From NCBI GenBank assembly GCA_963750165.1, contig CAVVPN010000003.1, forward strand, positions 2,400,001-2,464,000: 64,000 nt of DNA, written 5' to 3'. The notes under the pieces were generated by a model, which saw nothing but the letters and a program-made list of their open reading frames with translations, had not been told where the DNA came from and searched no databases. The DNA is from an uncultured Gemmataceae bacterium. GTDB lineage: Bacteria; Planctomycetota; Planctomycetia; Gemmatales; Gemmataceae. The position numbers and the translations under genes are program-made. Shown piece by piece: positions 7,411-55,997 of this stretch (its first letter is position 1; each line of letters begins with the position of its first letter).

Positions 7411-7500
7411 CCCGAACCAGGTGTTGCACGTGACGGGCAATCTAAGGTCAATCTGAAAACAATAAGTCGAGCGGCCCGCTCGTGAACTTTGTTGTTCGGC
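7411..7500 (+). other. attC site 1
   Basis: CCCGAAC...GTTCGGC ends; inner arms ttgcacgtgacggg / cccgctcgtgaa with extrahelical-type bulges. Confidence 0.75.
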
Positions 7501-7524
7501 GACAGGCTCAAACGGGGGCCGAAA

Positions 7525-8109
7525 ATGCGAGTGCTTTTGCTTTCCATGTTCGTTATAGCTCTGCTCGCCCAATCAAATGCCATCGGTGGCGATGCCCCCA
7601 TTCCGCCCAAATCCTACACACAGACGTCTGCCGATGGCAAGTATGTGTTCGTGATGCTCGCTCCTAAGAAGTTCCGCGGCACGAACGATCCACGTTATCC
7701 CAAGAGCGGCCTATACAAGAACGATGGATCCAAGGAGCCACTGTGGACGGTTGACTGGTATTGTCGCGATGTGCTTGTCTCAACCAACGGCGATCACGTC
7801 GTGAGGATTGAGCGTGACTTGTTTACCGAGGCAGCGCTTGATGATCCGTTACGGCAAGAAGATCTCAAGCGAGTCGTCGTGGCAACCTACTGGCGTGGCA
7901 AACCCCTAACAGAGCAGACTCTCGGCAGCCTGGTCGCTCGTCCGGAACTTATTCGCCGGAAGTCAGGACCTGGAGCCTCAAAGCGCGTGATCTGGCTAGT
8001 TGGCGAGTCAAAGCTGTTGGAAAAGGAGCGCCGCTTTGAAATACCGACAGGTGATGGTCGTGTCGTCGTCTTGGATCTTGGCACCGGAAAAATAATCAAG
8101 AGGAATTGA
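7525..8109 (+). CDS. Cassette 2: hypothetical secreted protein
   Basis: Signal peptide MRVLLLSMFVIALLA; YPKSGLYKNDGSKEPLWTVDWY segment. Confidence 0.75.
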   Translation: MRVLLLSMFVIALLAQSNAIGGDAPIPPKSYTQTSADGKYVFVMLAPKKFRGTNDPRYPKSGLYKNDGSKEPLWTVDWYCRDVLVSTNGDHVVRIERDLFTEAALDDPLRQEDLKRVVVATYWRGKPLTEQTLGSLVARPELIRRKSGPGASKRVIWLVGESKLLEKERRFEIPTGDGRVVVLDLGTGKIIKRN

Positions 8110-8310
8110 AATAGGCGACGACTACGTAGGCCGCCGGGAAAAATCAAAGGGGTCGGGAGTCGATTCCGGAAAACATCAGAGCCGAACCAGAGTGCTGCTG
8201 CGGACGGGCCATCTGAGTCTACTCGGACACCTTAAGTCGAGTGGCCCGCCGCAGAGTTCTCCATGAAACCAATTTCCCCCTGATCGATGAAAAGGAGGCG
8301 AGCTAGGATA

Positions 8311-8484
8311 GAGGGCGTCTGGGGACGTGCTGTGGTCGTGACTTAGCTGGTGCATCGTGCCCGACGCAGAGTTGGACCCGGACGCCGCGAGGCACCCTGA
8401 TTTGGGCGCAGCGCCCATATGCCCGTGTGGGAGACTCCACCACCGCCGGCGTCTGCATGCTCCCTGGGCGTCTGGAGAACTCCG
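8311..8484 (+). ncRNA. Putative IS110 bridge RNA
   Basis: Non-coding left end with stems (ggcgtctggg/cccggacgcc; tgggcgc/gcgccca) and four short segments matching target and donor half-sites; exact ends uncertain. Confidence 0.55.
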
Positions 8485-9732
8485 ATGGACGCGCTGCTCC
8501 CTGTCGTGCTGACCATTTGCTGCGGCATTGATGTCCACAAGAAGACCCTGACCGCCTGCCTCTTGAAGTCGGGTGCCTCGGGCGATGCGCTCGTCGAGCG
8601 CCGGGTCTTTCGGACCATGACCAGCGCCTTGCAGGAGTTGGCGCAGTGGTTGGTGCAGGCGGACTGTCGGCACGTGGCCATCGAGAGCACCGGCGTGTAT
8701 TGGAAGCCGGTGTTCAACATCCTGGAGCAGGCCGGCATTGAGGTCGTCCTGGTCAACGCCCAGCACGTCAAGAACGTGCCCGGACGCAAGACCGATGTCA
8801 AGGATGCCGAGTGGCTCGCCACCCTGTTGCGTGTGGGCCTGTTGCGCAGTAGTTTCGTGCCCCCCAAGGAAATCCGGGAACTGCGGGACTTGACGCGCTA
8901 CCGCACGCAAGTGATCCGCCAGCGCGCCGACGAGAGCAACCGTATCCAGAAGTTGCTGGAGAACTGCAACATCAAGTTGGCCGGCGTGGCCAGCGACGTA
9001 CTGGGAGCCAGTGGCCGAGACATGTTACGCAGCCTGGCCGAGGGCGTGGACAGCCCCGCCGTACTGGCCAACCTGGCGCGGGGCCAGCTGCGTGCGAAGA
9101 TCCCGGAATTGGAGGAAGCGCTGCGCGGGGTGATGAGCGCGACGCAGCGCTGGTTGCTGCGGGAGCAATTACAGAAGGTGAGCGACCTGGACGACGCCAT
9201 CGTCCGCTTGGATGCGAAGATCGCCGAGGTGTGCCTCCCGTTCGCGCAGGCGCTCGCGCTGTTGGACCAGATTCCCGGGGTGAACCAGCGGACGGCGCAG
9301 GTGATCGTGGCGGAGGTCGGCCTGGACATGAGCCGCTTTCAATCGGAGGGGCAGTTGGCGTCGTGGGCGGGGATGTGTCCAGGCAACCACGAGAGCGCTG
9401 GCAAGCAGAAGAGCGGCAAGACGCGCAAGGGCAACCGCTGGCTGCGGCAGGCGCTGGTGGAGGCGGCGCGGGGAGCGGCGAACACCAAGGAGAGCAGTCT
9501 GCGGGCGACGTACCATCGGATCAAGGCACGCCGCGGGGACAAGCGGGCCTGCCTGGCGGTGGGGCACCGGATCTTGCGGATGGCCTACACACTACTGAGC
9601 AAGCGCCGGCCGTACCAGGAAGAGGGGCCGGACTATTACCGGACGGCAGACAAGGACCGGCTGAAGGAGAGGCTGGTGCGGCGGCTGCAGAGAATGGGCT
9701 ATGAGGTGACCGTGGCGGAACCGGCGGCCTGA
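8485..9732 (+). CDS. IS110-family DEDD recombinase/transposase
   Basis: GIDVHKK, AIESTGVYW, KTDVKDA, IPGVN, WAGMCPGNHESAGK (catalytic Ser), GNRWLR; GGAG before ATG 8485. Confidence 0.95.
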   Translation: MDALLPVVLTICCGIDVHKKTLTACLLKSGASGDALVERRVFRTMTSALQELAQWLVQADCRHVAIESTGVYWKPVFNILEQAGIEVVLVNAQHVKNVPGRKTDVKDAEWLATLLRVGLLRSSFVPPKEIRELRDLTRYRTQVIRQRADESNRIQKLLENCNIKLAGVASDVLGASGRDMLRSLAEGVDSPAVLANLARGQLRAKIPELEEALRGVMSATQRWLLREQLQKVSDLDDAIVRLDAKIAEVCLPFAQALALLDQIPGVNQRTAQVIVAEVGLDMSRFQSEGQLASWAGMCPGNHESAGKQKSGKTRKGNRWLRQALVEAARGAANTKESSLRATYHRIKARRGDKRACLAVGHRILRMAYTLLSKRRPYQEEGPDYYRTADKDRLKERLVRRLQRMGYEVTVAEPAA

Positions 9733-9857
9733 GCAGGACCACCCACGACGGTCCCCTCGGTGGACACAGTCCCAGAAATACATTTTCGTGGGAGCTATGT
9801 CGTTCGGCGGCGGAGAGGCGGCTGTAGATTTACTATCTTGCAGACAGAGAGGATCTC

Positions 9858-10418
9858 ATGAAAGCGACAAGTGCAACCGCTACGGCATCCCTACTGCTAA
9901 TCGCCGCGCTACTGGCCGCGCGGTCTGGGGCGGCCCAGCCGCCAAAGGCGGACCAGCCCCCGGCCGGCGCGAAGACCCTTTCGGCGGACGACGACAAGGC
10001 CATCCGGCAGGTGATTCGCGGGATCGAGCAGGCGTGGAACGCCCACGACATGGACGCCTACGCCCGGCTGCTCCGGCCAGACGTCGAGTGGGTCAACGTC
10101 GTGGGCATGCACTGGCGCGGCCGGGACGACGTGATGCTCGCCCACAGAGCATTCCACAAAACGACCTTCAAGAACCACCACATCAAGACCGACGACATCC
10201 ACCTCCGCCCGCTCTGTCCCGGCTACGCGATCGCCGTGGTGACGACCACGAACGACGCGTTCACCGCGCCGGACGGTCGCGTCATCGACAAGAGGCAAGA
10301 TCGGCAGACCTACGTGTTGAGCAAAGAGGCCGACGGGTGGAAGATCGCCCACTGTGAGAACGTGTGGGTAGACGCCGAGGCGGCGAAGCACGACCCGGTG
10401 AAAAGCAAGAAGAAGTAG
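9858..10418 (+). CDS. Cassette 3: secreted SgcJ/EcaC-like NTF2/SnoaL-fold protein
   Basis: AWNAHDMDAY, DVEWVNVVGMHWRGR, GWKIAHCEN; signal peptide. Confidence 0.85.
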   Translation: MKATSATATASLLLIAALLAARSGAAQPPKADQPPAGAKTLSADDDKAIRQVIRGIEQAWNAHDMDAYARLLRPDVEWVNVVGMHWRGRDDVMLAHRAFHKTTFKNHHIKTDDIHLRPLCPGYAIAVVTTTNDAFTAPDGRVIDKRQDRQTYVLSKEADGWKIAHCENVWVDAEAAKHDPVKSKKK

Positions 10419-10589
10419 CGGCGTGCGGTCGCTCCGCCGAACCAGGCGCTGCACCTGACTTGCCTTCAGATTACAGGCATTTTACGCAGTCGCCGGGACA
10501 AAGTGAAGGACAAAGGCCGTGAATTGTCCCGCCAAGATTGTCCCGAAGGCCACGGCAGGCGGGGTGGCGGTCGAGCCTGGGTATCAGAA

Positions 10590-10904
10590 ATGGAACCACA
10601 CTTTTTCAGGGATGCCAGTGACCGCCTCACGCATGACAGAGCGGATATTGACTCCTCTTCGTATCCCGAAGTTTGCAGAACGGTCGCCGACCACTTCAAC
10701 CTGAAGCCGTTGTCAGAATTGGTCATCGGGCTTGACCAGATGTTTTGGGATTTTACGAATGGCACATTGGCCGTAGAGCTTGCGTGGGACAACTGGCTTT
10801 GTTTCACAATCACAGCAAAGGAGCCAGATGCAGAAGCACTTGTATGCCAAATGGCAGCTTTCCTATCGGAGACTCGACCGCCAAAGTTGGATTCATCACC
10901 CTGA
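10590..10904 (+). CDS. Small acidic hypothetical protein (DUF3630-like)
   Basis: 104 aa from ATG 10590; GLDQMFWDF...LAWDNW pattern; low GC. Confidence 0.55.
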   Translation: MEPHFFRDASDRLTHDRADIDSSSYPEVCRTVADHFNLKPLSELVIGLDQMFWDFTNGTLAVELAWDNWLCFTITAKEPDAEALVCQMAAFLSETRPPKLDSSP

Positions 10905-11702
10905 AACGGCTGTTACCACATCGTCCATGCTGGAAATCCACCCAGCAGGAACACCAAAATAGCCCACCGAGCGACGAACCCGCTTCAACGAGAAGTAGCC
11001 CTGAATGAGTTCATGGAGTTCAAGGGCATATTCCTCCGCACCGGGTTGTTGAAGCCCCTCACTGATCTTCCGCTCCTGTTCCTTGATCTCTTTCCAGATG
11101 TCCTCCTTGTTCATGCCGGTCGGCCAAAATAGGCCGATGGTTCCGTACTTCCGCATCTTAAGTTCTTGCCGAAGCAGGACACGCTTCCTGTTCCATCGGT
11201 CATGGCTGACGATCTCACCGTTCTTATACTTCGCCGTCCTCGCCTTCGTCATGTAGCGGACGGTGAACCGGCCTTCGGCGGGGTCGTACTTCTCCACCTT
11301 GATGTTGGTCTTCACGTCGTCCACCGCAAACTTCACCAACTCCGACAGGTTCGGCGTCTGGCTCCGTAGTAGCATGTGGTAGTTGAAGCGGTTGCTACGG
11401 CGGCTGACTTCGCAGATGTAGAGGGCGACGACGTTCTTGCCCTTCAAGTAGCGGCACACCTTCGACCACAACACCTTCATCTCGGCGGCGGTCAAGTCCT
11501 GCATGATGTTGATGGAGGCGAAGAACGTGAACTCGTCCTTGAAGTAACGGTGTCTGGCCCACGCCACACAGCGGGAGAGCTTGTCGGCCTCGTAGATGTA
11601 CCCGTCCAGCGTGTACCAGCCGTCCTCTTGGAAGCCCAACGGACGGACACGCTTCTTGGGGCGGCATTGATACAATCTCTCTGGTGAGGTACTATCTACC
11701 AT
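10896..11702 (-). CDS. Rolling-circle replication initiator (HUH-superfamily Rep-like)
   Basis: Motif 1-like FFASINI, motif 2-like LYICEVSRRSNRFNYHMLL, motif 3 RYMTK (YxxK). Confidence 0.65.
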   Translation of the reverse strand: MVDSTSPERLYQCRPKKRVRPLGFQEDGWYTLDGYIYEADKLSRCVAWARHRYFKDEFTFFASINIMQDLTAAEMKVLWSKVCRYLKGKNVVALYICEVSRRSNRFNYHMLLRSQTPNLSELVKFAVDDVKTNIKVEKYDPAEGRFTVRYMTKARTAKYKNGEIVSHDRWNRKRVLLRQELKMRKYGTIGLFWPTGMNKEDIWKEIKEQERKISEGLQQPGAEEYALELHELIQGYFSLKRVRRSVGYFGVPAGWISSMDDVVTAVSG

Positions 11703-11711
11703 AGCTTTCGG

Positions 11712-11750
11712 AACCCGCCGTGCTTGGGTTGCAGTTCGGTACGGCGGGTT
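11712..11750. other. Hairpin upstream of rep (terminator or candidate origin)
   Basis: 10-bp perfect arms aacccgccgt / acggcgggtt. Confidence 0.5.
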
Positions 11751-11777
11751 TCTTCGTGTTGCGATTTCACGATGCTG

Positions 11778-12053
11778 TCAGTCAGGCGATCTCCACTGCC
11801 GACCGAACTTGACGGTTTCCCAGCCGAATGGAGCGGCGGCAAAACCTTCCCTTTCATCGCCGTCGCCCATGATGATTACATCCCCCAGCTTACTCTCGTA
11901 CTGGTCAAACACCTTGGCAATGCTCTCGGCATCCAGTACCAGATGTTCGTGGTACTCGTCGGGGAACCTTGCCCCACGCATATCGGTGAGAGAGCGAGGA
12001 CGCCAACTGCCATGTCCTTCGGTGTTATCGAGGCGGTAGACGACAGCTTTCAT
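11778..12053 (-). CDS. Hypothetical protein (element cargo)
   Basis: 91-aa ATG ORF tiled co-directionally with its neighbours. Confidence 0.6.
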   Translation of the reverse strand: MKAVVYRLDNTEGHGSWRPRSLTDMRGARFPDEYHEHLVLDAESIAKVFDQYESKLGDVIIMGDGDEREGFAAAPFGWETVKFGRQWRSPD

Positions 12054-12070
12054 TGTGTATGTCCAGAAGG

Positions 12071-12478
12071 TCAGGAGTTGTCCGCTGCCGGTCGAGAGGG
12101 CGATGTCGTGAAAGTCGTATTATATCTACCAATCTCGGATGCCCCTCGCAGGTCGCTTTCGACTTGCACGGCCTGACGTGCCGCCTCGTCGTGGAAGTTG
12201 AAGAAGTTGGCGTACTCCGGGTAGTCAATAACCATCTGCCGGGCCATCATCGGGAGGAAGTCGTTCGACACCTTGTAGCCGACGTACTCTCCCACCGACA
12301 TCTCCCACCGTATGCGATTACCGATCAGGTTCGCTCCGCAGCGGTCGTGACCGGCTTTGCGGTACATCTCGGAGAACTGTCGGAACAAGGCGTACACGGT
12401 CTGGCCGTGCTTGGTGTTGATCCACTTCTGGAAACGGTCGTACTTCTCGTTGGTGTACCGGGAGAAGATACCGGGCAT
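12071..12478 (-). CDS. Phage-type conserved hypothetical protein
   Basis: VYALFRQF...GANLIGNRIRWE...YKVSNDFLPMMAR...P...NFF pattern recalled from small phage proteins; start ATG 12478 inferred. Confidence 0.6.
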   Translation of the reverse strand: MPGIFSRYTNEKYDRFQKWINTKHGQTVYALFRQFSEMYRKAGHDRCGANLIGNRIRWEMSVGEYVGYKVSNDFLPMMARQMVIDYPEYANFFNFHDEAARQAVQVESDLRGASEIGRYNTTFTTSPSRPAADNS

Positions 12479-12585
12479 GGATGTAATGTTCACGCCGGTA
12501 TCTATGCACCGGCGTTTCATTTTACCCGAATTTTTCCCGACTCGGTGTACTTCATGCCCAACAGGACGGCTGACACCTGAACTGG

Positions 12586-12867
12586 TCAATCATGAGGCTG
12601 CGGCTGAAAGAGAAGGAAAGTTTCTTCCGGGGTTGCCATGAAACGGTTGATCCGCTCGGCTTCGTCTGGCCCTGCATCGGCGGGGTACTCGTCGTGCAAG
12701 AATTGGAGGACATCAGCTAAGGGCCACGGCCCCAGCGAAGTCATATAGTCGTCGAACTCGTCCTGTATCTCTCGCCACGTTGAATATGGCTTCTTCGTTA
12801 GCAGCACTGGCCCGCTCCGCAGATACACGATATGTAGCAACACGTCGATGATGGGTGTAGTGTTCAT
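12586..12867 (-). CDS. Hypothetical protein (element cargo)
   Basis: 93 aa from ATG 12867 (MNTTPIIDVLLHIVYLRSG...), acidic. Confidence 0.6.
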   Translation of the reverse strand: MNTTPIIDVLLHIVYLRSGPVLLTKKPYSTWREIQDEFDDYMTSLGPWPLADVLQFLHDEYPADAGPDEAERINRFMATPEETFLLFQPQPHD

Positions 12868-12881
12868 GTTGTCGAAGTCAC

Positions 12882-13295
12882 TCAGTTGAAGTTGCCGACA
12901 TCGAAAAACGTCCCTTCTTCTGGAACGAACATCACGGCTCCCGGTAGCTTCTCCTCCAAGTCTTGCAGCAAGAAGACGAAGTGGTTGAAATGCTTCATGT
13001 CGTAGTCCTTGTCCGCACCGATGCTGACCCACTTGTCACACGCAGTCAACTGCTCCTTGTCAGTCCGCTCGGAGCCGTACCCGGCCACAATCTCTTCCGA
13101 CTCCTTGCGGACGCTCTCTCCTGCTTCGTAATAGACTCTCAGCGACCAGTCGCCCCACCGTACTTCCACACGACTTCCTTCAACATGTATCTGTGCCGCT
13201 CGATCTCGCCCGTATGTGTCGGTGACCAAGGCTGCGAGCTTTGTCGCAGACATGTCAGTCGTCGGTGGCAAGAAAATGATCCTGTCGTATGGCAT
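12882..13295 (-). CDS. Hypothetical acidic protein (immunity-protein-like composition)
   Basis: 137-aa ATG ORF; DYDMKHFNHFVFLLQDLEEKL...FVP. Confidence 0.65.
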   Translation of the reverse strand: MPYDRIIFLPPTTDMSATKLAALVTDTYGRDRAAQIHVEGSRVEVRWGDWSLRVYYEAGESVRKESEEIVAGYGSERTDKEQLTACDKWVSIGADKDYDMKHFNHFVFLLQDLEEKLPGAVMFVPEEGTFFDVGNFN

Positions 13296-13589
13296 AGTTC
13301 GTCGTCCTGTTGCTGCCGTTCAGAAACAAGAAAGCACACATGGTCATGGTGGAGCAGACCGGGGTTGATGGAACCAGTTTCCAACTTTTTACATTCGTAT
13401 TTCCGTGTTCTTAACTCTTCAACAAGGGCTGAGGGCGAACTGGAGGCTGTAAAGAACACGGACTTGGCCCACCCCCTTGAACGGCTCCCACACCACTACC
13501 ACAACACCGAGCAGGAGGCCAACAAGGACACGCAACCCCCGCAAAAAGCAGAGGTTGCGGTGTGTACTACTTCGGAACTCTGAACCGAC

Positions 13590-13640
13590 GTATTAACCAG
13601 TCGGCGGGCTGTCCGCTGCCCGGCACAGGGTGGTTAATAC
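13590..13640 (-). terminator. Hairpin just downstream of the integrase gene
   Basis: gtattaacca ... tggttaatac inverted repeat 8 bp past the stop. Confidence 0.45.
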
Positions 13641-14422
13641 TGCTGTTATTACTCCTTTTCCTCGTCGCCGCCGAACACCTTCGCCCGCACCATGTCCAGT
13701 GCCTTGTCGAGCTTGGCGACCTGGGCGTCCGTGAGGTTGCAGACGTAGCTGCTGTAGTGCGTGCCGTACCCTTCGGCCCGGTACAGGATGCGGCTCTCCT
13801 CCTCCCCGGTGAGTTCCTGTATCCACTGAGCCACCGTCTTCCGCAAGGCCATGTGTTCGGGCAGGCCGTACTTGTCCCGAAGCTGCTGGTACGCCCGTTC
13901 AAGCTGCCCCCGGTACAGCTTGTACTCCTTCCGCTCCTTCTGCGGGTCGTGGCCGTACTGGAGAACGGCCAGCGTTTCCGGCCACAACTTCCACTTCGAC
14001 ATGAAGCCCTTCTGTACCCCGTCCCGCTTGTTCTTCGCCCTCGCCTTCGTGACGTGGCTCTCGTCGCAGTGCTTGGCCTGTAGCTCGGCGATGTCCGACC
14101 AGTAGAACCCGCAGTTCAACCCCAGCAGCAGACCGACACGCTGAAGCCCGGTGGCGTGCTGGAGGGCGAGTTTGACCTGAGCCAACTCGTACTTCGTCTG
14201 GTCGGGCGGCGGCGTGTGGATGCGGTACTTCTTGTTGCGGACGAACGGGAACCGCAGGTCGTCCCGGTCGGCCTCCAGATGCTTCAGGAACGTGTGGATG
14301 ATCCGCTGGCGGTTCTGCTTGGTCCGCTGCGTCCAGCCTTCGGCCTGCTGTGGTGTGCTCCCCAAAAAGTGGTCCAGGTGGTATGAGAGTCTCTGAGGCC
14401 CTGCGGGGCCAGGAGACGAACC

Positions 14423-14695
14423 ATGAAGCGACACACGGCTGAAGAGGTCATCACCAAGCTGCGGCAGGCCGAGGCCGACCTGGCCCAGGGGCTTGGCGTC
14501 GCCCAGGTCTGCCAGAAACTCGGCGTCAGCGAGCAGACCCTGCACCGCTGGCGGAACCAGTACGGCGGCCTCAAGCAGGACGAGGCCAAGCGGCTCAAGG
14601 AACTGGAGACCGAGAACGTTCGCCTCAAGCGCCTCGTCGCCGAGCTGGCCCTGGACAAGCAGCTGCTCCAGGAGGCCGTCCAAAAAAAGTGGTGA
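14423..14695 (+). CDS. IS3 transposase OrfA (HTH)
   Basis: LGVSEQTLHRWRNQYGG, LKELETENVRLKRLVAEL; A7G slippery site at 14682-14689. Confidence 0.93.
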   Translation: MKRHTAEEVITKLRQAEADLAQGLGVAQVCQKLGVSEQTLHRWRNQYGGLKQDEAKRLKELETENVRLKRLVAELALDKQLLQEAVQKKW

Positions 14696-15600
14696 CCGCC
14701 GCCCAGCGCCGCCAGCTGGCGCGGCACCTGCAGGAGGCGTTCGGCGTGTCCGAGCGCCGCGCCTGCCGCGTGCTGGGGCAACCGCGCTCCACCCAGCGGC
14801 AGGTCCCCCTTCCCCAGGAGGAGGAAGGCCGGCTGGTCCGGCGCATCCTGGAGCTGGTGCGCCAGCACCCGCGCTACGGCTACCGGCGCATCTGGGCGCT
14901 GCTGCGCCGGGAAGGGTGGCGGGTCAACCGCAAGCGCGTCTGGCGGCTGTGGCGGCAGCAGGGGCTGAAAGTGCCCAGGAAGCAGCGGAAAAAACGGCGG
15001 CTGGGCTCCAGTGCCAACAGCTGCGTGCGGCGGCCGGCGGAGCACAAGGGCCACGTCTGGGCGTGGGACTTCCTGCACGACCGGACGGCGGACGGCGGGG
15101 CGCTGAAGTGGTTCACGCTGGTGGACGAGTATACGCGCGAGTGCCTGGCCCTGGAGGTGCGGCGCGGCATGACGGCCCGGGCGGTGAACGCGGTGCTGGC
15201 CGGGGTGGTGCGGGAGCGTGGCGCACCGAGGCACATTCGCAGCGACAACGGGCCGGAGTTCATCGCCAAGGCGATCCGGGCCTGGATGACGGGGGCGGGC
15301 CTGGAGACGCTGTACATCGCGCCGGGGGCGCCGTGGGAGAACGGGTACGCGGAGTCGTTCAACAGCAAGGTGCGCGACGAACTGCTGAACGCGGAGGTGT
15401 TCGGCAGCCTGCGGGAGGCGCAGGTGCTGGGCAAGGCATGGAAGCACGAGTACAACCACGTCCGGCCTCACAGCTCGTTGGGGTATCGGACGCCAGCGGA
15501 GTACGGGGAGATGTGTCCTCGGGCCGACTCCGCTGCGCTACGCCAGCCCGAGGACACATCTGTGACGGTTGATCCGACTCTCACAGCGCCTGGTACATAA
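14689..15600 (+). CDS. IS3 transposase OrfB (DDE), fused by -1 frameshift
   Basis: YGYRRI, WAWDF, VDEYTRECL, SDNGPEF, PWENGYAESFN, RPHSSLGY. Confidence 0.95.
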   Translation: MVTAAQRRQLARHLQEAFGVSERRACRVLGQPRSTQRQVPLPQEEEGRLVRRILELVRQHPRYGYRRIWALLRREGWRVNRKRVWRLWRQQGLKVPRKQRKKRRLGSSANSCVRRPAEHKGHVWAWDFLHDRTADGGALKWFTLVDEYTRECLALEVRRGMTARAVNAVLAGVVRERGAPRHIRSDNGPEFIAKAIRAWMTGAGLETLYIAPGAPWENGYAESFNSKVRDELLNAEVFGSLREAQVLGKAWKHEYNHVRPHSSLGYRTPAEYGEMCPRADSAALRQPEDTSVTVDPTLTAPGT

Positions 15601-16793
15601 AATGGGGGCAAGCCAGCTGCTCTCGGTCGAGGATTTCAAGGAAGCGGCGGTAGTGCTGGACCGTGATCTCGGTCAGCCGGATGTGGCCGGTCGCCTCAAG
15701 GAACAAGTCCATCGCCCGCTTGATGTCGTACCACTGTTTGTTGTCCTTCTTCTTGTAGCTGTCGATGTACGCCTTCGCCTCCACCGTGAGGCTCACGTCC
15801 TTCGGGATGGCCCTGCTCTCAGCAAGGTCGTTCAGCACGCTCGCCGTGATGATGCCCTCGCCCCCGTCGAGGGCCACCAGAGCCGCCGCCTGTCGCATAT
15901 CGGGGTGGACGGCAGGACCGTCCACATGGTCGATGTCCCAATCTGGCACGGTTCGGGCATCGGCGAGTTCTTCTTCAAGCTGGGCCGTGTCCCGGCCCTG
16001 CTCCTTGAACTCCGTGATGAACCCCTCAAGGCTGGCGATGCGGGTCGGGATCGGGGTCGGGCCGAGTAATTCGGCGGCTTTCTCGGCCCGCTTGAGCTTC
16101 AGGTACTTGAGCCAGTACGGGCGGCTCCCCTTCTCGCTGTTGGGGACCGCTTCCTTGAACGACTCCTGAAGTTGCTGGGTGGTGGCCGACACCTTGAGTT
16201 CCTTCGTTCGGAGCTTCCACTGCTTCTTGTCGTGGTCGAATGTTCCGTTGCCGTGAACCGCCATCTCGTCCATTGCCTTACCCCCTGCAACCCGCTATTC
16301 CTTGTATTGTCCCGAACTTTGCCCCTCCGGTCAATCGTCCCGAAGAGGTTTAGGACGTTACTTCTGATCTGGCAATCGGTTGCACTGCGTCAGGCGGGTG
16401 CGTTGGGGGCAAAACGGTCTGTCGCTGCACCTGACCGGGGCCGCCATACTGGTTCTCCGAGGCGCCAAGGTTTTGCAGGCGGCCCCGGCAGGTGAGGTTG
16501 GTTGTTCGGCTTGGCTGGCGTCATAAATGGTGTAGCACCATAGGTTTAAGCGATTCGGAGCCGCGTGGCTTAAGACGCGCGTCTCGTCGGAACCGCGAAC
16601 CGCCTTGGCCCACCAGGCGTGGCGTGCAGTCCAGGAGCGGCGGGAAGCCTCCGATCCGTTGCTACGGCGAGGCCATGCGTTCCCGCTCGCTGCGGTGGGG
16701 TCTGGTTCCCTGGTTGCCACCAGCCCACGCGATCTATCCCGAGGCAACCGGCCGGCACTTGGAACGCAGAGTTCAGCGCAACTGGTCCGCCCA

Positions 16794-16888
16794 GCCGAAC
16801 CCGCCGTTGCACGAAACCGGGCGCGCCTCCCGGTCCCTCTGACGGTGAGTCGGCCCAGCGCGCCCGGTTCGTGAACTCTGCGTTCGGC
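16794..16888 (+). other. attC site 4 (cassette 4, 16511-16793, has no convincing ORF)
   Basis: GCCGAAC...ttgcacgaaaccgggcgcgc / gcgcgcccggttcgtgaa...GTTCGGC. Confidence 0.8.
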
Positions 16889-16910
16889 AGCACACGAAAG
16901 GGGGGTGCGA

Positions 16911-17243
16911 ATGGCGAAGGAGCACCTGACATCGCTGCAGCTTGGTTTCAGTTTTCTGGGACTGCTGGCCTGGGGTCTCGCCACCTTCTTCGGCCTACGC
17001 GCGACCGTGGTGACGAAAACTTCTCCTGCTGCGGGGCATCCGGTGTTCATCGAGCAGCCCAACGTCGCAGCCGCAGGCGCGGCGGGCGGATTCGCCATCG
17101 CCGGCGGGCTCTGCTTCCTCGGCATCCCTCTGGCAAGACTGATGATCGGGAGTGGAGCATCGCCGAGTCAGCCTTTAGAGTTGACCGGGGCCGTCAGTCG
17201 CGGTTCCGAACAGTTCACGGCTACGAAGGGAAGCCCCGGATAA
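16911..17243 (+). CDS. Cassette 5: small two-TM membrane protein
   Basis: ATG 16911 after a G-rich RBS; two hydrophobic helices. Confidence 0.65.
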   Translation: MAKEHLTSLQLGFSFLGLLAWGLATFFGLRATVVTKTSPAAGHPVFIEQPNVAAAGAAGGFAIAGGLCFLGIPLARLMIGSGASPSQPLELTGAVSRGSEQFTATKGSPG

Positions 17244-17319
17244 AAGGCAATCAAAGGGACAGCAAAATCTCTTGACGATAACCAAAGGGGTCGGGAGTCG
17301 ACTGCAGATAAGAATCATC

Positions 17320-17418
17320 GCCGAACCAACGGATGAAGCTGACCGGGGCCGCCATCCTGGTTTCGCGCGGCATGAAGGTCTTGCAGGCGGCCCCGGCAGC
17401 TTATCCTTATCGTTCGGC
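17320..17418 (+). other. attC site 5
   Basis: GCCGAAC...ggatgaagctgaccggggccgcc / ggcggccccggcagcttatcc...GTTCGGC. Confidence 0.85.
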
Positions 17419-17476
17419 GGATCGACAAAAGGTCAGCGAAATCGTTTGGAACGGCTGCTGTTGAAGGAGGTGTTCG

Positions 17477-17962
17477 ATGCGCGTGCTGGCGATTCTATTA
17501 GCGACGTTGCTGCTATCCGTCCCGGTCGGGAGCGCGCAGGAAAAAGATGCTCCTCGCGGACAGCCTCCGCAGCTGTGGCTAGCGTCGGCCTCCGATCAGG
17601 AAGGGGCGGTCGTCATTCAGATCGCAAAGCAGGTGGAGCGAGGGGGTGTTGACGGCGCCCGCGGCTTAGGGCCGGGAGTGCAGTCCTTGCCGGCCACAAT
17701 GGTCATGAAGTGGAGTAACCTCAGGAAGGTGACACTCGGCAAGACGGTGCAAGCCTTCCGCGTCAATGGCGAACGTGCAGAAACGAAATCCGTGCTGAAG
17801 GCACTCGCCCAGCCGAAAGGCGTCGCGGTCTTTGTCCGAACCAACGAACGCGATCCGACAAGGCCCGACCGCTTCTACCTGGCACTGCTCCGCGAAGATA
17901 CTCTTGTGCTGGTGGTCAACGAGAAAGACATTTACCCCAATAAACCTGCGCCTCCACCGTAG
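17477..17962 (+). CDS. Cassette 6: hypothetical secreted protein
   Basis: AAGGAGG RBS; signal peptide; FYLALLREDTLVLVV C-terminus. Confidence 0.8.
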   Translation: MRVLAILLATLLLSVPVGSAQEKDAPRGQPPQLWLASASDQEGAVVIQIAKQVERGGVDGARGLGPGVQSLPATMVMKWSNLRKVTLGKTVQAFRVNGERAETKSVLKALAQPKGVAVFVRTNERDPTRPDRFYLALLREDTLVLVVNEKDIYPNKPAPPP

Positions 17963-18019
17963 CCAGCATGAGGACACCTGCGCGCCCGCAGGGCAGCACG
18001 GAGGATGGCATTGCTCAGC

Positions 18020-18116
18020 GCCGAACCAGCCGTTGCAGCAGACAGGGCGGGCAGCACGGCTTTCCGAGGTTCAACGTCTTTCCAGCCCGCCCTGCTGCTG
18101 AACTGGGTCGTTCGGC
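18020..18116 (+). other. attC site 6
   Basis: GCCGAAC...ttgcagcagacagggcgggc / gcccgccctgctgctgaa...GTTCGGC. Confidence 0.85.
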
Positions 18117-18131
18117 AGGGGAGGGAATCAA

Positions 18132-18425
18132 ATGGGTCCAGCTCCCCGCGAGATCGGTGGGGCGAAAGTGATTTGCTTCACGCCCATTGACGAACGGCAT
18201 CGCCCCACCGGAAACTGTAAGCAGATCGTTGCAGGGGTTCTCCGAGTGCCAGCCGCAGGTTTGGCCATCTGCCAATATCCTGGCGAGAACTGCTATTACT
18301 TGTTTGGCTGCAACGCCACTTGGGAAAGCATTACGGATACTTGGCATCAATCGCTCGAAGAAGCCAAGGAGCAGGCGGAGTTTGAATACAGGGGCGTTTC
18401 GGCAACTTGGCACGAGCATGGCTGA
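18132..18425 (+). CDS. Cassette 7: small conserved hypothetical protein
   Basis: LAICQYPGE..YYLFGC...W....DTWHQSLEEAKEQAEFEY motif; GGAGG RBS. Confidence 0.75.
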   Translation: MGPAPREIGGAKVICFTPIDERHRPTGNCKQIVAGVLRVPAAGLAICQYPGENCYYLFGCNATWESITDTWHQSLEEAKEQAEFEYRGVSATWHEHG

Positions 18426-18436
18426 TGTTACGCTAT

Positions 18437-18459
18437 GCCGAACCAAACGCTGCACCTGA
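18437..18459 (+). other. Truncated attC site 7 (left arm only)
   Basis: GCCGAACcaaacgctgcacctga followed directly by a REP arm; no GTTCGGC. Confidence 0.65.
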
Positions 18460-18525
18460 GGGAGGAAAAGGGAACGCGGACATTTTTCTTGACGGTGAAC
18501 CGGGGTCAGCCGTCGTCCGGTGGCG

Positions 18526-55902: not shown

Positions 55903-55997
55903 GGGGGTGCTTGCACACCTGGTGGTGGCCCTGGTCTTCAAAACCAGTGGGGGGCTTGAACAAAGCCCCCGGTGGATTCGATTTCCATGCACTCCCG
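55903..55997 (+). tRNA. selC: tRNA-Sec (UCA)
   Basis: 8-bp acceptor GGGGGTGC/GCACTCCC plus G; anticodon stem CTGGT-CTTCAAA-ACCAG; long variable arm; T-arm GTGGA-TTCGATT-TCCAT. Confidence 0.92.

Follow-up and report, generated by a model that had tools for sequence, protein, structure and literature searches.

The pSAM2-type actinomycete integrative and conjugative elements (AICEs) combine a tyrosine integrase with a rolling-circle Rep and an FtsK-like transfer gene and integrate at tRNA genes. The RS1 satellite of the CTX phage is a small integrated element which possesses a rep gene, has no morphogenesis genes and relies on XerCD at dif, while the replication protein of minimal satellites is a primase-helicase. 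Integrases of the IntDOT/NBU1 type, found in Bacteroides, are active without the canonical first arginine, for which an arginine from an upstream position probably stands in. Specific targeting of integron attC sites, in one orientation, is ascribed to IS1111-attC insertion sequences (ISs) and to group IIC-attC (and IIB) introns in published accounts (PMC3001079, PMC7923331, PMC11187229). In a 64,000-nt stretch of DNA of an uncultured Gemmataceae bacterium (hereafter the window; positions 2,400,001 to 2,464,000 of contig CAVVPN010000003.1, here C3, assembly GCA_963750165.1), we found an attC site split by an insert that encodes a tyrosine recombinase and a Rep-like protein. We estimate at about three in four the probability that the insert represents a disabled copy of a small integrative element of Gemmataceae that derives from a phage, and rate the element as a phage, satellite or plasmid module that integrates by means of an atypical integrase into a new class of attachment site. 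The initial annotation of this DNA knew of no replicative tyrosine-recombinase element targeting attC. In agreement with this, the full-text literature, with most subscription journals outside its coverage, yielded no description of such an element or phage inserted in attC and only the work on IS1111-attC and group II introns; the parts available of a Planctomycetes plasmidome preprint and of an integron review make no mention of one either.

The exact 13-mer CGCTGCACCTGAC is present at 10447-10459 and at 16423-16435, as had been annotated, and a copy with one mismatch, noted before as a near-match in the last attC of the array, was located at 18448-18460. Dinucleotide shuffles of the window (n = 100) gave a mean of 0.19 matches to the 13-mer at one mismatch or less, three being reached in 1 of the 100, and the whole genome (9.6 Mb) holds 10 exact copies. 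The predicted sizes were found to be correct, 5976 bp from core to core and 4707 bp without the IS3-family IS inside the insert. The element has a lower G+C content (57%) than the window (65%) or the IS within it (69%). Both halves of an attC flank the insert, as initially described. On the left, on the plus strand, the attC 5' arm with the Rep-proximal junction (10436-10459; attC hidden Markov model (HMM) positions 1-55) consists of the R'' box GCCGAAC (10436-10442), the spacer CAGG and core copy 1, and is a member of repeat family D1/D3. On the right, also on the plus strand, the Int-proximal junction (16423-16510), delimited by sequence, attC HMM and fold, comprises core copy 2 and the remaining attC, a GC-rich stem with loop, L' and the R' box GTTCGGC closing at 16510. 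The attC HMM was built from 21 complete sites of the array beside intI on contig C4 of the same genome. On this model the site rejoined in silico scores 38.0 bits (model positions 2-96), the separate junctions 22-23 bits each and 20 shuffles at most 4.7 bits. The rejoined site is identical to the intact attC at 17320-17418 in 78 of 102 aligned columns and folds as a single hairpin, with -30.5 kcal/mol for a 101-nt slice and -30.0 for the 99 nt from GCCGAAC to GTTCGGC, so that the rebuilding of an attC by excision holds in silico. The boundaries of the insert and its attC target are established.

Relatives were sought in genome and metagenome contigs and in 252 genomes of the host's family, 15 of which gave Rep matches; a phylum-wide sample of 400 genomes contained no Rep match beyond the host and only weak integrase matches. 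Gene order in the relatives is int, variable cargo, resolvase, orf172, hairpin and rep, the resolvase lying upstream of orf172 in seven of them, and the cargo includes ArsR with SulP, a MerT/HMA fusion and an ECF sigma-WD40 protein. Nine independent insertions with both junctions, the window included, were tallied. Left out were L034 and L036 (same insertion as L033), L037 (contig stops 3 nt past the core), L031 (P arm breaks off ~20 nt short of the expected core, with other sequence next), L035 and L038-L041 (contigs stop before a junction is reached), L071 (two complete attC enclosing a Rep fragment), L072 (fragmentary), L063-L068 and L070 (Rep distant at 25-34% identity; this integrase and this core missing) and L069 (distant Int and Rep, other core).

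At the Rep-side junction GTCAGGTGCAGCG was found in 9/9 insertions. The Int-side core matches it in all 13 positions in five (the window, L028, L032, L062 and the element in G491:C307), in the last 9 in one (L029) and in the last 7 in three (L027, L033 and L026), leaving TGCAGCG, 7 bp, as the identity common to all junctions. Where the two core copies differ, target-type bases lie to the left of TGCAGCG on the int side and element-type bases on the rep side, which points to strand exchange within the 7 bp. Once rejoined, the targets of five of the nine (the window, L027, L029, L032 and C307) have both attC stem arms. A tRNA gene is the target in none of the nine, nor was one seen beside the Rep gene in the distant Rep loci scanned. 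The idea that the att cores of homologous elements fall in attC is in large part borne out by these insertions. The initial annotation also regarded the conserved left arm of attC as a multi-copy attB, and indeed 15 of the 50 attC 5' arms in the host genome carry the 7-bp CGCTGCA and make it a multi-copy target. As only 3 of the 145 copies of the 11-mer CAGGCGCTGCA in that genome have an attC context, the preference for attC exceeds this 11-mer alone. The distant relative L069 (7791-10905) is a 3.1-kb element with little beyond a family integrase (36-39% identity) and a distant Rep (28%); the 12-bp repeat CAGGCGATACGC bounds it on both sides, with TTGGGTA-type repeats alongside, and its site is not an attC. 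Because this Int and Rep relative uses an unrelated core, attC targeting belongs to one clade only.

The integrase gene of the window copy lies on the minus strand in two parts, a C-terminal one with the catalytic domain (13649-14346; 78% identity to the intact integrase of L032) and an N-terminal one (15616-16273; 69%) that, according to the model, comprises an N-terminal beta-sheet domain, long helices and the start of the core-binding domain. It is split by an IS with its target duplication (14347-15615, plus strand; orfA 14423-14695 and orfB 14689-15600, overlapping at an A-rich run; Pfam HTH_Tnp_1, rve and rve_3), assigned to the IS3 family by its domains, its overlapping open reading frames (ORFs) and its precise absence in two metagenome runs. 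In these runs (X1 and X3, from different studies) one contig each joins 14346 to 15616, with 4 ambiguous bases at the joint, and because exactly 1269 bp are skipped, the extent of the IS and the IS-free size of 4707 bp follow. A close relative with an uninterrupted integrase exists in the two runs, and a second, 100% identical copy of the IS lies at C1:258175-259438. Since the IS splits the integrase and no second copy of that integrase was found in the host genome, the window copy is unable to excise by itself.

A search with the intact L032 integrase returned 37 relatives, a few of which are named integrase in the source records. Its model (pLDDT 86) gave, by VIA-align, Z 15.5 to the Int of Brujita, 13.7 to an archaeal Xer and 12.5 to lambda Int, all 50 of the 50 rows listed being tyrosine recombinases or their domains; Foldseek likewise returned tyrosine recombinases, with lambda Int as the best (E 1.8e-6). 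By its modelled two-domain fold, core-binding plus catalytic, the integrase of the element is a tyrosine recombinase, as first annotated. Residue 414 of the model is aligned to lambda residue 337, so that Y419 takes the position of the lambda nucleophile Tyr342; in alignment and model R387 (in ALRKT), K323 and Y419, all nearly invariant, fit the second arginine, the hairpin lysine and the nucleophile, and the position of the third-motif histidine may hold E410 or H415. The initial gene list stands in its contents; what it could not foresee is that integrase and Rep both escape Pfam, NCBIfam and PHROGs at the usual thresholds, and structure and remote homology were needed to recognise them. Standard profile libraries do not detect the integrase family, so that annotation probably overlooks such elements.

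The L032 model possesses an extra N-terminal three-stranded sheet domain, and the core of the element is flanked by short repeats. In the P arm (10460-10546) k-mer analysis revealed three GGGACAA-type arm repeats, two direct and one inverted, at offsets -85, -71 and -42; in the P' arm (16305-16422) k-mer analysis and sequence gave GGGACAA/GGGACGA repeats. The offsets from the core are kept in seven other elements, at about -86, -72 and -55/-42 on the rep side and at +92 and +107 to +121 on the int side. Three sequence types of the repeats, GGGACAA (window, L032 and C307), AGGGTAG (L026, L027, L029 and L033) and TCAGAGA (L028), go with integrase subfamilies. The attP pattern and the N-terminal sheet look like those of a lambda-type integrase with arm-type sites, which the sheet domain would presumably bind. 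To the lambda-type (heterobivalent) phage integrases the element is linked by the fold (Z 12.5 to lambda Int), the N-terminal sheet, the arm repeats around a short core, a probable overlap of 7 bp and a tailed prophage among its relatives; it differs from them in having an attC arm as attB instead of a tRNA or a unique gene, in the lack of a Pfam Phage_integrase match and in an apparent tyrosine at the position of the first arginine. An excisionase was not identified.

According to the mechanism that we propose, the attP would carry arm-type repeats on both sides of the core GTCAGG-TGCAGCG, and the integrase would recombine this double-stranded attP with the R''-L'' arm of an attC (top strand GCCGAAC-CAGG-CGCTGCA-CCTGAC). 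Strand exchange would occur inside the 7-bp CGCTGCA, splitting the attC and leaving direct repeats of 7 to 13 bp. After excision, Rep could act at the hairpin upstream of rep, either replicating the 4.7-kb circle or nicking it for transfer. The constant offsets of the arm repeats from the core suggest such lambda-type double-strand integration rather than IntI chemistry. Compared with IS1111-attC elements and group II introns, which use a DEDD transposase with guide RNA or retrohoming, the element shares the attC target but depends on a tyrosine integrase with an attP, and its family carries a replication gene and cargo and, in one member, virion genes.

The Rep-like protein (268 aa; 10896-11702, minus strand) contains the motifs FTFFASINI, NRFNYHMLL and VRYMTKAR. 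It has 75 homologues with 52-100% identity, mostly in Gemmataceae records, that have the motifs FTxFxSINI, NRFNYHxLL and VRYMTKAK in common. In the model (pLDDT 78) the secondary structure order is beta-alpha-beta-beta-alpha-beta-alpha, as in Rep-class HUH nucleases, with the motifs on the first strand (FTFFASINI, strand 60-66), the third strand (NYHMLL, 106-112) and the subsequent helix (RYMTK, 146-151). The best structural match found by VIA is the Rep SIRV1 ORF119 (2x3g; rmsd 4.4, 110 aligned), followed at Z 4.7-5.5 by parvovirus NS1, RepB of pMV158, a REP-associated transposase (RAYT) and circovirus Rep, interspersed with generic ferredoxin-like folds. The HUH motif reads N-Y-H, an invariant asparagine taking the place of the first histidine. 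A profile of the Rep family collected 236 cluster representatives; 104 remote homologues were scanned, drawn from 150 listed of the 236, with a length of roughly at least 200 aa and the closest relatives left out. REP_ORF2-G2P (PF23343) was matched by 70 of the 104 at E <= 0.01, 12 of them at or above the gathering score of 27.8 bits, and Phage_GPA by two remote homologues as well; among 29 close homologues one matches PF23343 (E 0.0033). A protein-language-model atlas points to the same family. Through these remote homologues the Rep family is probably linked to the REP_ORF2-G2P superfamily, and we read the protein as a putative divergent HUH-type initiator with an N-Y-H motif, in line with the HUH-type assignment of the initial annotation. 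It would share this superfamily with the gpII-type Rep of inoviruses and plectroviruses, and like RS1 the element is small, integrated and equipped with rep in the absence of morphogenesis genes; unlike these, its full-size relative is tailed, not filamentous, and it has its own integrase instead of XerCD at dif.

A conserved stem-loop (11712-11750, minus strand) lies 10-48 nt upstream of the rep start codon. In an alignment of 14 elements it comprises 11 pairs, 96.7% of the cells being paired and 5 pairs showing compensatory changes; none of 500 shuffles scored as high, and sliding the partners by 1-3 columns reduced pairing to 23-40%. The stem-loop may be a nick site or origin, or else a regulatory hairpin.

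The phage-derived character of the element is indicated by a prophage relative, G491:C307, in which two exact cores lie 19,980 bp apart. Its integrase is 41% identical to that of L032 and 43-46% to the two halves of the window, and it has an orf172 homologue and a Rep (55% identity) and shares the GGGACAA arm repeats and the hairpin. Between orf172 and rep it carries the terminase large subunit TerL (phrog_9, 474 bits), a portal (381 bits), an HK97-type major head protein (236 bits), Neck1 and a tape measure, and downstream of rep a methyltransferase. Both attC stem arms are present in its target after rejoining, the R' box being degenerate. On its circular map the genes of the small elements form one contiguous arc, and no structural gene was matched in the small elements scanned. 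Because this 20-kb prophage shares integrase type, core, arm repeats, orf172 and Rep with them, the small elements could be satellites or mini-derivatives spread in the particles of that phage, for which we see about even odds. With PICMI, PICI and P4-like satellites they have in common a size of 4.7-7 kb, an integrase with a replication gene, the absence of virion genes and the sharing of modules with a phage from their host group, here the 19,980-bp helper-type prophage (for PICMI, PMC10803314); they differ in targeting attC, in using a putative HUH Rep as replication protein and in the lack of an AlpA-type regulator, none having been found in the small elements. The initial annotation had left the choice between a satellite-like and a plasmid-like element open; the tailed prophage in the family favours the satellite side, and replication of the element is something that we infer.

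A number of results weigh against the main reading, that of a phage-derived integrative element. As for the integrase, the Pfam and NCBIfam integrase models matched neither the two window halves nor five intact homologues (best Phage_int_SAM_5, E 0.015), and a profile searched against PDB sequences gave nothing significant, only geminin coiled-coil noise and P2 integrase at E 0.87. At the position of the first arginine our own alignment, together with a weak hhalign match, places a nearly invariant Tyr300 (Thr in L027); the hhalign comparison, with the IntI of the genome, has a probability of 0.4. On this alignment the integrase appears to have no canonical first arginine. R288, R321 and R408 are nearly invariant candidate substitutes, R288 lying 12 residues before Y300, a situation that resembles IntDOT/NBU1, from which the element differs in having no detectable sequence relationship and in an overlap that is identical between attP and attB. 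The Z of 7.1 between Rep and SIRV1 ORF119 falls within the range that the tool calls common, and the window Rep has no Pfam match even at E 10. As regards the targets, three of the nine insertions (L028, L033 and L062) show the attC 5' arm only, with no recognisable 3' half, one (L026) lies in a DJ-1/PfpI gene in which CAGGCGCTGCA alone is shared, and the right junction of L030, outside the tally, is not attC-like.

Other such results concern the lifestyle. No member was found when a viral contig collection was scanned with the Rep alignment, the host genome holds no homologue of the C307 TerL or capsid, such a homologue was present in 1 of 5 element-bearing genomes searched, and the small elements yielded neither a terminase small subunit nor a packaging site. 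The resolvase found in relatives is absent from the window copy. Neither a circular junction nor an empty site nor a free replicon turned up in metagenome runs that contain at most 0.16 of the sampled words of the element, the assembled contigs of four runs only being covered; in itself, a run search without an end-to-end joint neither supports nor counts against excision.

Several of these results would also fit an integrative rolling-circle plasmid or integrative mobilizable element in which no phage is involved, a phage having borrowed the same integration and replication module. Rep would then replicate a circle whose multimers are resolved by the resolvase, or would be a relaxase that acts at the hairpin and rides a conjugative system. 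We consider this explanation, in either form, less likely than not. Rep and resolvase are a plasmid-like pair, the resolvase being present in seven relatives and absent from the prophage, the cargo (ArsR with SulP, MerT/HMA fusion, ECF sigma-WD40 protein) is plasmid-like, and neither a packaging gene or helper nor a match in viral contigs was detected. Against this stand the absence of any relaxase, coupling protein or FtsK-like transfer gene in the elements scanned, the lack of a free circular contig among those recovered, the match of orf172 to a phage family only and its mostly viral atlas neighbours, and the contiguous arc that the small elements form in the circular map of the prophage, as a deletion derivative would show. 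The element resembles the AICEs as a small integrating replicon with a tyrosine integrase and a probable rolling-circle Rep, and differs from them by the missing FtsK-like gene and by a target other than tRNA.

It is improbable that the small elements are inert remnants, that is decayed prophages which lost their structural genes and have no life of their own. Decay is visible in individual copies: that of the window is broken by the IS3 in int and is without resolvase, rep is broken in L062 and the resolvase in L027, and L071 and L072 contain fragments. Yet the small architecture recurs in eight independent insertions in different genomes, with int and rep intact in most, and independent decay would not yield one conserved layout. 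As the small elements have their own cargo, a resolvase of their own (seven relatives) that the prophage is without, and Reps that are 70-80% identical to that of the window versus 55% for the prophage, they look like a satellite or mini-replicon lineage rather than the product of independent decay.

The insert is part of an array of seven attC sites of one type and in one orientation (7411-18460, plus strand; defined by repeat family and HMM), namely at 7411-7500, at about 8181-8256 with about 9792-9808 (split by an IS110-family IS), at 10436-10459 with 16436-16510 (split by the element studied here), at 16794-16888, at 17320-17418 (intact), at 18020-18116 and, as a 5' arm only, at 18437-18460. 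The initial annotation spoke of an integron attC site. The attC sites of the array are real, while no intI was matched in the stretch of C3 covered by the window. The same attC type occurs in about 30 sites on the minus strand of C4 (1,150,922-1,196,490), stopping just before an intI at 1,198,898-1,199,845 (426.5 bits against TIGR02249, cut-off 265). With intI absent from the window and the same attC type adjoining intI on C4, the array of the window represents a CALIN (attC sites clustered without an integrase) in a genome that holds a large sedentary integron. A truncated second intI (model positions 1-148) was noticed within the cassette array of C4 (1190003-1190728), about 8.6 kb from the full one.

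Since the insert sits in a cassette array and its joined flanks make an attC, the host IntI might have taken it up as an oversized cassette by recombining attC with attC, which we judge highly improbable. IntI cleaves at the G/TT of the R' box. The exchange point of the insert is 4 nt beyond the R'' box, and the junctions lie in the R''-L'' arm and not in R' boxes, where the crossovers of gene cassettes fall. The reconstructed attP reaches at most 7.3 bits on the attC model, as a partial match only. One relative is inserted in a protein-coding gene and three in attC arms unable to fold, and the element supplies its own integrase and arm repeats. Together, the failure of attP to score as attC, the place of exchange and the insertions into half-sites and into a gene argue against IntI chemistry.

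That the repeat is a product of chance or an assembly artefact has next to no probability, for although a 13-mer may recur by chance in GC-rich DNA, and a further exact copy at C3:2,504,809 falls without meaning within a long ORF, homologous elements in eight other genomes and metagenomes have the same core at their ends and the flanks, once rejoined, score as attC. A second element considered at C3:2,495,714-2,504,809, where two exact 13-mers lie 9,095 bp apart, was rejected; neither int nor rep is found between them, and the right-hand copy lies within an ORF of 2833 aa with a GC content of 74-76%. Outside the window, about 72 kb from the element, C3:2,488,000-2,495,726 (L081) holds a phage head module with a terminase large subunit, a portal and an HK97-type capsid. 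About 760 nt beyond it there is a solo attC 5' arm with the exact 13-mer, in an orientation unfit for an insertion of this family.

Tentatively, and with less confidence than for the small elements themselves, we propose that a lineage of temperate tailed phages in Gemmataceae and the minimal satellites that arose from it have in common an unusual integrase without the first arginine that is specialised on the double-stranded 5' arm of attC, the arrays serving as multi-copy phage landing pads. A multi-copy, conserved and non-essential attB would explain the appeal of arrays as targets. The insertion splits the attC and should block IntI-mediated excision of the adjoining cassette. An element between attC sites could in principle be moved by IntI, so that, if the proposal is true, prophages and satellites in arrays could travel as compound cassettes, and cassettes could pass from host to host in phage particles. 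Among the literature found, this would be a third kind of attC-homing mobile element, beside IS1111-attC elements and group II introns, and one that probably homes by ordinary double-strand tyrosine recombination, with metal and transport cargo in relatives and a tailed prophage as a member. The forms of 4.7 kb and 3.1 kb are among the smallest elements with Int and Rep, and if they are satellites, satellite biology would be extended to Planctomycetota.

The remaining genes of the insert are small. Between rep and attP, on the strand opposite to rep, orf133 (10503-10904, plus strand, from the ORF list) is 94.5% identical in amino acids to the ORF at the same position in L062 (10338-10667) and 73.5% to that in L072. 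As the integrases of the window and L062 are only ~33-41% identical, modules are evidently exchanged between elements. For orf91 (11778-12053, minus strand, from the ORF list) a 70%-identical DNA paralogue is present at C11:1850000-1850273 of the host genome. The conserved backbone gene orf172 (12071-12589, minus strand) matches the phage family phrog_13625 of unknown function (E 3.5e-10), as do its counterparts in L032, L029 and C307; it occurs in all full relatives and in the 20-kb prophage, with tblastn identities of 49-78% in relatives. A variable region (12586-13295, minus strand) with the overlapping orf148 (12586-13032) and orf137 (12882-13295), both from the ORF list, stands where most relatives have cargo genes and the resolvase. 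With Pfam, NCBIfam, PHROGs and PADLOC, phrog_13625 for orf172 was the only match among the small ORFs, and no defence system was matched.

Some further observations concern attC sites. The neighbouring attC at ~8181-8256 / ~9792-9808 is split by an IS110-family element with a transposase at 8419-9732 (DEDD_Tnp_IS110 and Transposase_20). As this IS and the element studied here split neighbouring sites, the CALIN has been struck by two different attC-inserting elements, in opposite arms. In L032, the closest relative, an IS110-family element (9138-10273) begins directly after CCTGG at the rep-side junction and displaces the attC R'' box. A perfect palindrome of 65 or 87 nt, which starts with GCCGAACAACAACTTC, ends with GAAGTTGTTGTTCGGC and shares the attC end boxes, is dispersed in the host genome (e.g. 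C1:333250, C3:438971 and C12:21966), with 71 hits past the fold filter when both strands are counted. L071 (G470:C848, 1-12476) carries, all in one orientation, about 19 core-like attC arms, and 13 of them are scored by the attC HMM; its Rep fragment (residues 142-241, 67% identity) between two complete attC sites resembles cassette content. Elsewhere in the window, a selenocysteine tRNA gene is located at 55903-55996 (Rfam RF01852, 71.6 bits).

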